Below, one piece after another: positions 44,976-52,227 of a DNA stretch of 64,000 nucleotides. Under the pieces are notes generated by a model, which did not search any database, was not told the DNA's origin, and saw nothing but the letters and a program-made list of their open reading frames with translations. The DNA is from Escherichia coli (GTDB lineage Bacteria > Pseudomonadota > Gammaproteobacteria > Enterobacterales > Enterobacteriaceae). The translations under genes were made by a program, and so were the position numbers. The DNA lies in assembly GCF_003334335.1 (NCBI RefSeq), contig NZ_QOWQ01000011.1; one strand, written 5' to 3'. How positions within the stretch are numbered: the first letter of the stretch is position 1; each line of letters starts with the position of its first letter.

Positions 44976-45167
44976 AAATTGTTTTGCTACCAAACCTCAT
45001 GGGTGGCAACGGGGCGCTACTATAGGGAGTTGGAGTAAAACGGTCAAGAAGAATTTTAATGATAATTATTGTTTGCTCATACTGTAAACAAGTTGTGCAG
45101 TATATCTACATCGAGACAAGTTACGGACTTATACTTCCAAAGTACTTCATACATATCACAAAATAAA

Positions 45168-51171: not shown

Positions 51172-51598
51172 TCAAATTCTCCCGTCATTATCACCTCTGC
51201 TACTTAAATTTCCCGCTTTATAAGCCGATTAAATGATGAATAAACGCCCCTGTTAATGAATATCTGGCATGTTGTACTAAAAATCGATGTTTTGCTTTGA
51301 CAATCCCCTGGTGTTTTGCGAAAACATTCGAGGAAGAAAAAAAACAGTATTCTTATATGCGCATAACCATGCATGTAAATACCATGTTTACCGTGCTAGT
51401 GAAATCTACGTATGGCGTGGACAGACGCCATTCGTGATGTCGATAGCTGCCACAAGGCAACGGTCTTCTCACCGTAGACCCAGGCATTGCGCGCCGTGAA
51501 TCTTCATGATTTCGGTCTATCGTGACGGGTAGCGACTCTGAACAGTGATGTTTCAGGGTCAGACAGGAGTAGGGAAGGAATACAGAGAGACAATAATA

Positions 51599-52093
51599 AT
51601 GGTAGATAGCAAGAAGCGCCCTGGCAAAGATCTCGACCGTATCGATCGTAACATTCTTAATGAGTTGCAAAAGGATGGGCGTATTTCTAACGTCGAGCTT
51701 TCTAAACGTGTGGGACTTTCCCCAACGCCGTGCCTTGAGCGTGTGCGTCGGCTGGAAAGACAAGGGTTTATTCAGGGCTATACGGCGCTGCTTAACCCCC
51801 ATTATCTGGATGCATCACTTCTGGTATTCGTTGAGATTACTCTGAATCGTGGCGCACCGGATGTGTTTGAACAATTCAATACCGCTGTACAAAAACTTGA
51901 AGAAATTCAGGAGTGTCATTTAGTATCCGGTGATTTCGACTACCTGTTGAAAACACGCGTGCCGGATATGTCAGCCTACCGTAAGTTGCTGGGGGAAACC
52001 CTGCTGCGTCTGCCTGGCGTCAATGACACACGGACATACGTTGTTATGGAAGAAGTCAAGCAGAGTAATCGTCTGGTTATTAAGACGCGCTAA
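51599..52093 (+). CDS. lrp: Leucine-responsive regulatory protein Lrp, 164 aa
   Basis: ATG at 51599 gives MVDSKKRPGKDLDRIDRNILNELQKDGRISN; AsnC-type HTH plus RAM domain. Confidence 0.95.
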   Translation: MVDSKKRPGKDLDRIDRNILNELQKDGRISNVELSKRVGLSPTPCLERVRRLERQGFIQGYTALLNPHYLDASLLVFVEITLNRGAPDVFEQFNTAVQKLEEIQECHLVSGDFDYLLKTRVPDMSAYRKLLGETLLRLPGVNDTRTYVVMEEVKQSNRLVIKTR

Positions 52094-52133
52094 CACGGAA
52101 CAGGTGCAAAATCGGCGTATTTTGATTACACTC

Positions 52134-52149
52134 CTGTTAATCCATACAG
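52134..52149 (+). promoter_or_regulatory. Candidate LexA box (SOS box) upstream of ftsK
   Basis: CTGT-TAATCCAT-ACAG fits CTGT-N8-ACAG; about 80 bp upstream of the ftsK start; ftsK is known to have an SOS-inducible promoter (dinH). Confidence 0.5.
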
Positions 52150-52227
52150 CAACAGTACTGGGGTAACCTGGTACTGTTGTCCGTTTTAGCATCGGGCAGG
52201 AAAAGCCTGTAACCTGGAGAGCCTTTC

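Follow-up and report, generated by a model that had tools for sequence, protein, structure and literature searches.

The DNA considered here, called the window throughout, is a single 64-kb stretch of Escherichia coli chromosome in which the genes lrp and ftsK follow each other on the plus strand with a spacer of 134 nt between them. The spacer contains the sequence CTGTTAATCCATACAG at 52134–52149, in which the core CTGT-N8-ACAG (a CTG-N10-CAG frame) is present without mismatch; it starts 41 nt past the lrp stop codon and ends 79 nt ahead of the TTG start codon of ftsK. The original prediction had described these bases as a LexA-box-like match, located between lrp and ftsK and having imperfect flanks. 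All of this was borne out: the sequence match is exact and the published LexA motif of ftsK is identical to it, the RefSeq annotation places the box inside the spacer, and the flanking bases are TC..CA here as compared with TA..TA in the consensus. We consider CTGTTAATCCATACAG, with a probability of about 0.95, to be the operator that LexA binds at dinH, a promoter of E. coli ftsK. The box is already known, being the published dinH/ftsK SOS box, and literature from the 1990s onwards ties FtsK to the SOS response through it.

Positions 52084–52243 of the window are identical at every base to MG1655 933080–933239, so that a window coordinate equals the MG1655 coordinate minus 880,996. The surrounding 1 kb (51500–52500) has 100% identity with many E. 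coli chromosomes, with the flanks annotated as lrp and ftsK in RefSeq. When complete E. coli genomes were searched with the same 1 kb and with three 220-bp probes, each query also gave 6–8 matches on plasmid-labelled records; these may be pieces of chromosome carried by large plasmids, or replicons with a wrong label.

The features of the locus are listed below; conservation refers to an alignment of 73 distinct lrp–ftsK spacers from Enterobacterales, called the spacer alignment in the following.

51599–52093, plus strand: coding sequence of lrp, the upstream neighbour (RefSeq annotation)
52104–52109, plus strand: GTGCAA, probable −35 hexamer, 17 bp upstream of TACACT (assigned from conservation and Reg-Seq peaks)
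52127–52132, plus strand: TACACT, probable −10 hexamer of the dinH promoter (assigned from conservation and Reg-Seq peaks)
52132–52151, unstranded: full 20-bp LexA operator TCCTGTTAATCCATACAGCA (held-out matrix, published heterology index)
52134–52149, unstranded: LexA (SOS) box core CTGTTAATCCATACAG (published motif identity, Reg-Seq footprint, conservation)
52142, plus strand: published LexA-regulated start site of ftsK, MG1655 933138 (mapped through the MG1655 identity; ±1 nt possible)
52149–52180, plus strand: 14-bp RNA hairpin with a GUAA loop, followed by CCGUUUUAGC (folding, covariation, Term-seq 3′ end)
52216–52219, plus strand: Shine-Dalgarno sequence GGAG of ftsK, inside the near-invariant CCTGGAGAG (52213–52221; 95–100% identity in the spacer alignment)
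52228–56217, plus strand: coding sequence of ftsK, the regulated gene, with a TTG start and 1329 aa (list of open reading frames and RefSeq annotation)

Another feature was observed on the far side of lrp. Published Term-seq data record an abundant RNA 3′ end at MG1655 932430, which is 51434 in the window and precedes the lrp start codon by 165 nt; as an intrinsic terminator it scores 7.4. At about 51384–51444 on the plus strand, likewise upstream of lrp, the window contains the hairpin GGCGTGGACAGACGCC and then ATTCGTG. These features point to early termination in the leader of lrp or to a small RNA there.

Statistical weight of the match

The bare pattern CTGT-N8-ACAG was found twice in the 64-kb window, where 0.71 occurrences are expected, and at least two matches were present in 17 of 100 shuffled sequences. 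Taken by itself the core is not beyond chance, and such a pattern needs the full matrix, the position and the conservation before it can be trusted. A symmetrised position weight matrix was built from 17 other E. coli LexA boxes (PMC3009722), with the ftsK box held out. On this matrix TCCTGTTAATCCATACAGCA scores 16.4 bits and is the best match of the window, the runner-up having 11.3 bits; the training boxes span 13.7–28.8 bits, and the ftsK value falls inside this range. Among 300 sequences of 64 kb simulated with a first-order Markov model, the mean maximum was 11.7 bits and a score of at least 16.4 bits was reached in only 4%. By our own scaling of the 4% figure, the chance of a 16.4-bit match within the 134-nt spacer is ~1e-4.

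The heterology index leads to the same assessment. An analogue of the index computed for the ftsK box is 10.3, and the published value is 9.2, which classifies it as a weak box (PMC11228462). Both lie below the limit of about 15 accepted for LexA boxes (PMC11002266), and the box thus has the similarity expected of a LexA operator.

Three further matches in the window were considered as LexA boxes and rejected. The second occurrence of the core, CTGTCATAAGAGACAG at 19116–19131, lies inside artJ and scores 9.4 bits (matrix match at 19114), while the next-best matrix matches are at 61412–61431 inside dmsA, with 11.3 bits, and at 45067–45086 beside a tRNA-Ser gene, with 11.1 bits. All three are treated as chance matches because their scores equal the level of the null maximum.

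These numbers bear directly on the possibility that the ftsK match is itself a chance occurrence of CTGT-N8-ACAG devoid of any regulatory role. The frequency of the core in shuffled sequences and the random appearance of the match in artJ would be in line with such an explanation. Nevertheless, the full matrix score of the ftsK box is 5 bits above any other in the window, a box has kept its place in 76 of 80 species against drift in the adjoining spacer columns, a Reg-Seq repressor footprint falls on exactly these bases, and the expression of ftsK is lexA-dependent. A chance origin is effectively refuted by these observations and its probability is negligible. The ftsK box can be used as a positive control: a weak but genuine LexA operator is recognisable from sequence alone.

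Promoter anatomy and the adjacent hairpin

The start site of ftsK at MG1655 933138 is given in the Reg-Seq supplement, where it is attributed to a J. Bacteriol. article of 1992 (PMC7567609). In the Reg-Seq data for ftsK, a polymerase-like signal, in which mutations lower expression, is seen at −38 to −35 (52104–52107) and at −16 to −11 (52126–52131, ±1 nt), and an expression-raising, repressor-like signal runs from −8 to about +5 (PMC7567609). The repressor site called automatically in that study, −8 to +4, corresponds to 52134–52146 of the window, with a one-base index offset being possible (PMC7567609). In the spacer alignment, the TGCA at 52105–52108 is invariant and the adjoining A's are at least 92% conserved, and TACACT is invariant or 99% conserved. 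A consensus-based promoter and terminator scan of 51900–52400 found no promoter, and its sole terminator output was an irrelevant minus-strand hairpin inside ftsK; the ftsK promoter is too weak for a consensus scan. It is for this reason that the assignment of GTGCAA and TACACT as the probable −35 and −10 hexamers is based on conservation and the Reg-Seq peaks.

A different pair of hexamers, TTGATT (52122–52127) as −35 and TACAGC (52145–52150) as −10 with the box between them, was also considered and rejected. TTGATT is 51–97% conserved per column, with TTCAGC or CTTAGG in its place in other families, and both the start site at 52142 and the Reg-Seq peaks favour GTGCAA and TACACT. The distance between the end of TACACT and the published start is 9 nt, among the longest of those usually found.

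With the promoter placed in this manner, the last base of TACACT is also the first base of the 20-bp operator, which spans from about −10 to +9 and crosses +1 (52142). The box overlaps the region occupied by RNA polymerase, as is expected of a LexA operator, since the start site lies inside it and TACACT adjoins it.

Immediately downstream, the box meets the hairpin at 52149–52180, and G52149 is common to both. The predicted folding energy is −21.9 kcal/mol with a z-score of −5.5. Compensatory changes were found in 12 of its 14 pairs in the spacer alignment, where 90% of the cells are paired as compared with 31–56% when the partner is slid by 1–3 columns, and the observed covariation was reached by no shuffle. 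An Rfam search of 51400–52600 at E ≤ 1 returned no family, and the hairpin thus matches no curated RNA. Term-seq data contain an RNA 3′ end at 933176, that is window position 52180 at the base of the stem, in two sample tables (Adams et al. 2021). In LB at OD 0.4 this end has a Rho score of 1.03 and is not Rho-dependent; its intrinsic-terminator score is 1.70 as against a threshold of 3.0, and the RNA coverage across the hairpin is 475 upstream and 419 downstream (Adams et al. 2021). The tail CCGUUUUA has only four U's and failed the terminator scan. The hairpin is probably a weak terminator of lrp or a hairpin protecting the 3′ end of its transcript.

The LexA operator, the start site and the covarying terminator-like hairpin are packed within 50 bp. 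As transcription from dinH starts 7 nt before the stem, the hairpin is wholly contained in the SOS-driven ftsK leader and forms its first structure. A second role is conceivable, in which the hairpin would be a conserved leader element setting the output of the SOS promoter to ftsK, either by attenuation or as a stem-loop that stabilises the 5′ end. Such a reading, which we regard as speculative and rather unlikely, is allowed by the covariation in Enterobacterales and by the RNA 3′ end that forms in vivo at the stem base. Any attenuation would be small because of the weak U-tract and the near-complete read-through. If true, the hairpin would constitute a post-initiation layer of control on an essential division gene.

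Toward the end of the spacer, the stretch 52213–52237 on the plus strand, comprising CCTGGAGAG, the TTG start and the first codons AGCCAGGAA, varies hardly at all within the order. Throughout the sample ftsK has the unusual TTG start, apart from an ATG in Morganella, Providencia and Moellerella. A CCUGG/CCAGG stem sequestering the Shine-Dalgarno sequence and start codon of ftsK was considered for this stretch and rejected, as the folding z-score of −0.61 is no better than that of shuffled sequences. The Shine-Dalgarno sequence and the first codons account for the conservation at 52213–52237.

Conservation across Enterobacterales

The Lrp protein was searched against species-representative genomes and the 80 closest Lrp loci, all of them from Enterobacterales, were retained. 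In each locus the lrp stop and the ftsK start were placed by tblastn, and the spacer between them was scored with the LexA matrix. A box of 12.2–20.8 bits was found at the same relative position in 76 of the 80 loci. Most Enterobacteriaceae have either the E. coli box sequence or a box with CTGG replacing CTGT, and this T-to-G change at box position 4 is a variant also found in the ruvA and cho boxes. A common box of 19.1 bits, TCCTGTTTATGCATACAGTT, is present in Morganella, Proteus, Photorhabdus and Xenorhabdus.

At seven loci from Serratia, Hafnia and Edwardsiella the boxes reach 20–21 bits and are nearer to the consensus than that of E. coli (16 bits), as exemplified by TCCTGTTTATTCATACAGTT with 20.8 bits. 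Judging from these scores, LexA repression of ftsK may be tighter in the three genera.

The four exceptions, three Providencia and one Moellerella, all belong to the Morganellaceae. Their spacers have grown to 400–900 bp (locus coordinates of about 1996–2410 or 1996–2915), and the box has decayed via substitutions and indels, as in TTGTTGTCGCACTGCAG, with the hairpin and its CCGTTTT tail being retained. From this pattern, ftsK seems to have escaped SOS control in a lineage-specific manner in Providencia and Moellerella. Since the box has decayed there, LexA control of ftsK would not be universal in Enterobacterales.

Column by column, the CTG, the central AT and the TACAG of the box are invariant among the 73 distinct spacers. 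The mean identity of the 16 box columns is ~92% by our own tally, as compared with ~69% for the bases separating the probable −35 and −10 hexamers, and the stretch past the hairpin has from 14% to 68% identity. This pattern fits the LexA motif. Control of ftsK by LexA seems widespread among Enterobacterales and is probably ancestral to the order.

The same columns could in principle have been conserved for other reasons, namely the promoter core, the initially transcribed region and the base of the lrp terminator hairpin, the LexA-like palindrome then being incidental. The arrangement of the locus lends this idea some weight, as the box adjoins the invariant TACACT, holds the start site and has G52149 in common with the covarying hairpin; the weak induction of ftsK by DNA damage would agree with it too. 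Nevertheless, a single base of the box belongs to the hairpin, and the conserved columns form a symmetric CTG...CAG at the spacing of LexA, with substitutions that LexA tolerates, such as CTGG. Mutations in the box raise expression in Reg-Seq, which is opposite to the effect of mutations in RNA-polymerase contacts. Moreover, the LexA footprint is reported to be gone with H2O2 at the promoters of the follow-up Reg-Seq study (PMC12133099), and the expression of ftsK is lower in a lexA3 strain (PMC11228462). An incidental palindrome is thus very improbable, and a LexA operator remains the preferred reading. Taken together, a core free of mismatches, a matrix score in the range of accepted boxes, overlap with the promoter and conservation at orthologous loci, by which a LexA operator is recognised, are all found at this site.

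LexA control of ftsK and comparison with known operators

Support for LexA binding and for the lexA-dependent induction of ftsK comes entirely through the literature. The 25-mer ACTCCTGTTAATCCATACAGCAACA was tabulated as the LexA motif of ftsK, which is UV-induced (PMC3009722), and ftsK was counted among the LexA-regulated genes with a known SOS box (PMC6590174). Two promoters of ftsK were described in a review, one inside lrp that is dispensable and another, the SOS promoter dinH, that is essential (PMC4080785). The same review stated that the expression of ftsK goes up during SOS, citing Wang & Lutkenhaus 1998 and Dorazi & Dewar 2000 (PMC4080785). The size of the response was measured in more recent studies. 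Treatment with AZT induced ftsK 1.5-fold in RNA-seq (P = 2e-10), and its level after AZT was 1.7-fold lower in the lexA3 strain (P = 8e-17) (PMC11228462). Ciprofloxacin produced a transient rise of ftsK, with log2 values of 0.58–0.94 at 10–50 min, and no detectable rise of the FtsK protein (PMC11002266). In Salmonella treated with the mutagen MX, ftsK was up only 1.2- to 1.4-fold (P = 0.18). LexA binding in vitro at dinH/ftsK is reportedly documented in the primary papers of Lewis et al. from 1992 and 1994 and of Dorazi & Dewar from 2000.

Reg-Seq provides the most direct view of the site. In the 2020 study, ftsK/LexA served as a gold-standard site, described as ‘experimentally validated, high-evidence’, and it was recovered and classified correctly; the factor was assigned by prior knowledge, without mass spectrometry (PMC7567609). 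In the follow-up study, five LexA-regulated promoters are reported to have a repressor footprint in glucose minimal medium that was gone with H2O2, the ftsK data are confined to supplementary figure S13, and the confirmation by DNA chromatography was made on tisB and not on ftsK (PMC12133099). The fit with an SOS-inducible ftsK promoter that the original prediction had proposed is upheld by the dinH literature, the lexA3-dependent expression and the Reg-Seq repressor footprint.

The way in which the factor was identified raises the question of whether a different regulator might act on the palindrome, for instance Lrp acting past the end of lrp itself, or some other dimeric repressor. The assignment from prior knowledge in 2020, together with the later chromatography on tisB (PMC12133099), leaves room for this idea. 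It is opposed by the score of the box on the LexA matrix, which is on par with those of the accepted weak boxes of dinB and polB, by the reported response of the footprint to an SOS inducer in the follow-up study (PMC12133099), and by the dependence of expression on the cleavage site of LexA, as seen with lexA3 (PMC11228462). In addition, no Rfam family was found in the region and no other motif was noticed there. Another regulator is hardly credible on this evidence, and the palindrome is best regarded as an operator of LexA.

A mechanism can be proposed on the basis of the LexA/RecA pathway. In the undamaged cell, a LexA dimer would sit on the box with each winged-helix domain on one CTG/CAG half-site. 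Lying just past TACACT and across the start site, the bound dimer would block either the formation of the open complex by RNA polymerase or its escape from the promoter. Upon DNA damage, RecA on single-stranded DNA would stimulate the self-cleavage of LexA, the operator would be emptied, and transcription would go up. The right half-site, ATACAG, matches the consensus perfectly, while CTGTTA on the left and the TC/CA flanks deviate from it, and this departure accounts for the high heterology index (about 9) and the small fold-change. As the box is weak, repression would be leaky. In our interpretation, leaky repression would suit an essential gene that needs basal output from the same promoter, with an induction of only 1.5- to 2-fold.

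The site ties the SOS response to DNA damage to FtsK, the essential translocase by which chromosome dimers are cleared and resolved at the division septum. The site is now a gold-standard control in regulatory genomics, and its confirmation brings no new biology. The present analysis adds the conservation picture across the order and the elements framing the operator, namely the probable −35 GTGCAA, the probable −10 TACACT and the covarying hairpin.

The comparison with known systems begins with the dinH/ftsK SOS box of E. coli K-12, which is the same element, the box having no difference within the identical MG1655 segment 933080–933239. The strong SOS operators, those of recN, sulA, umuDC and tisB/istR with the consensus TACTGTATATATATACAGTA, have the consensus half-site ATACAG in common with the right half of the ftsK box, and the mechanism is the same, with occlusion by a LexA dimer being relieved by RecA-stimulated self-cleavage. 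The ftsK box differs from them in having CTGTTA instead of CTGTAT on the left and TC/CA instead of TA/TA as flanks, and it scores ~10–12 bits lower. The induction differs accordingly in size, being 1.5-fold for ftsK and 20- to 70-fold for the strong operators (PMC11228462).

A closer likeness is found with the weak operators of dinB, polB and dinG, which have heterology indices of 8.6–13 and score 16.8, 13.7 and 18.5 bits, respectively, as compared with 16.4 for ftsK. They have in common with it a modest fold induction and the same CTG-N10-CAG frame. The placement of the operator is different: at ftsK it covers the start site and follows the −10 hexamer, whereas in the dinB, polB and dinG class it lies between or over the −35 and −10 hexamers. 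Unlike these genes, ftsK is essential, and its LexA-controlled promoter is reported to be required for normal division (PMC4080785). Because the required promoter of an essential gene is under LexA control, the ftsK operator must stay leaky.
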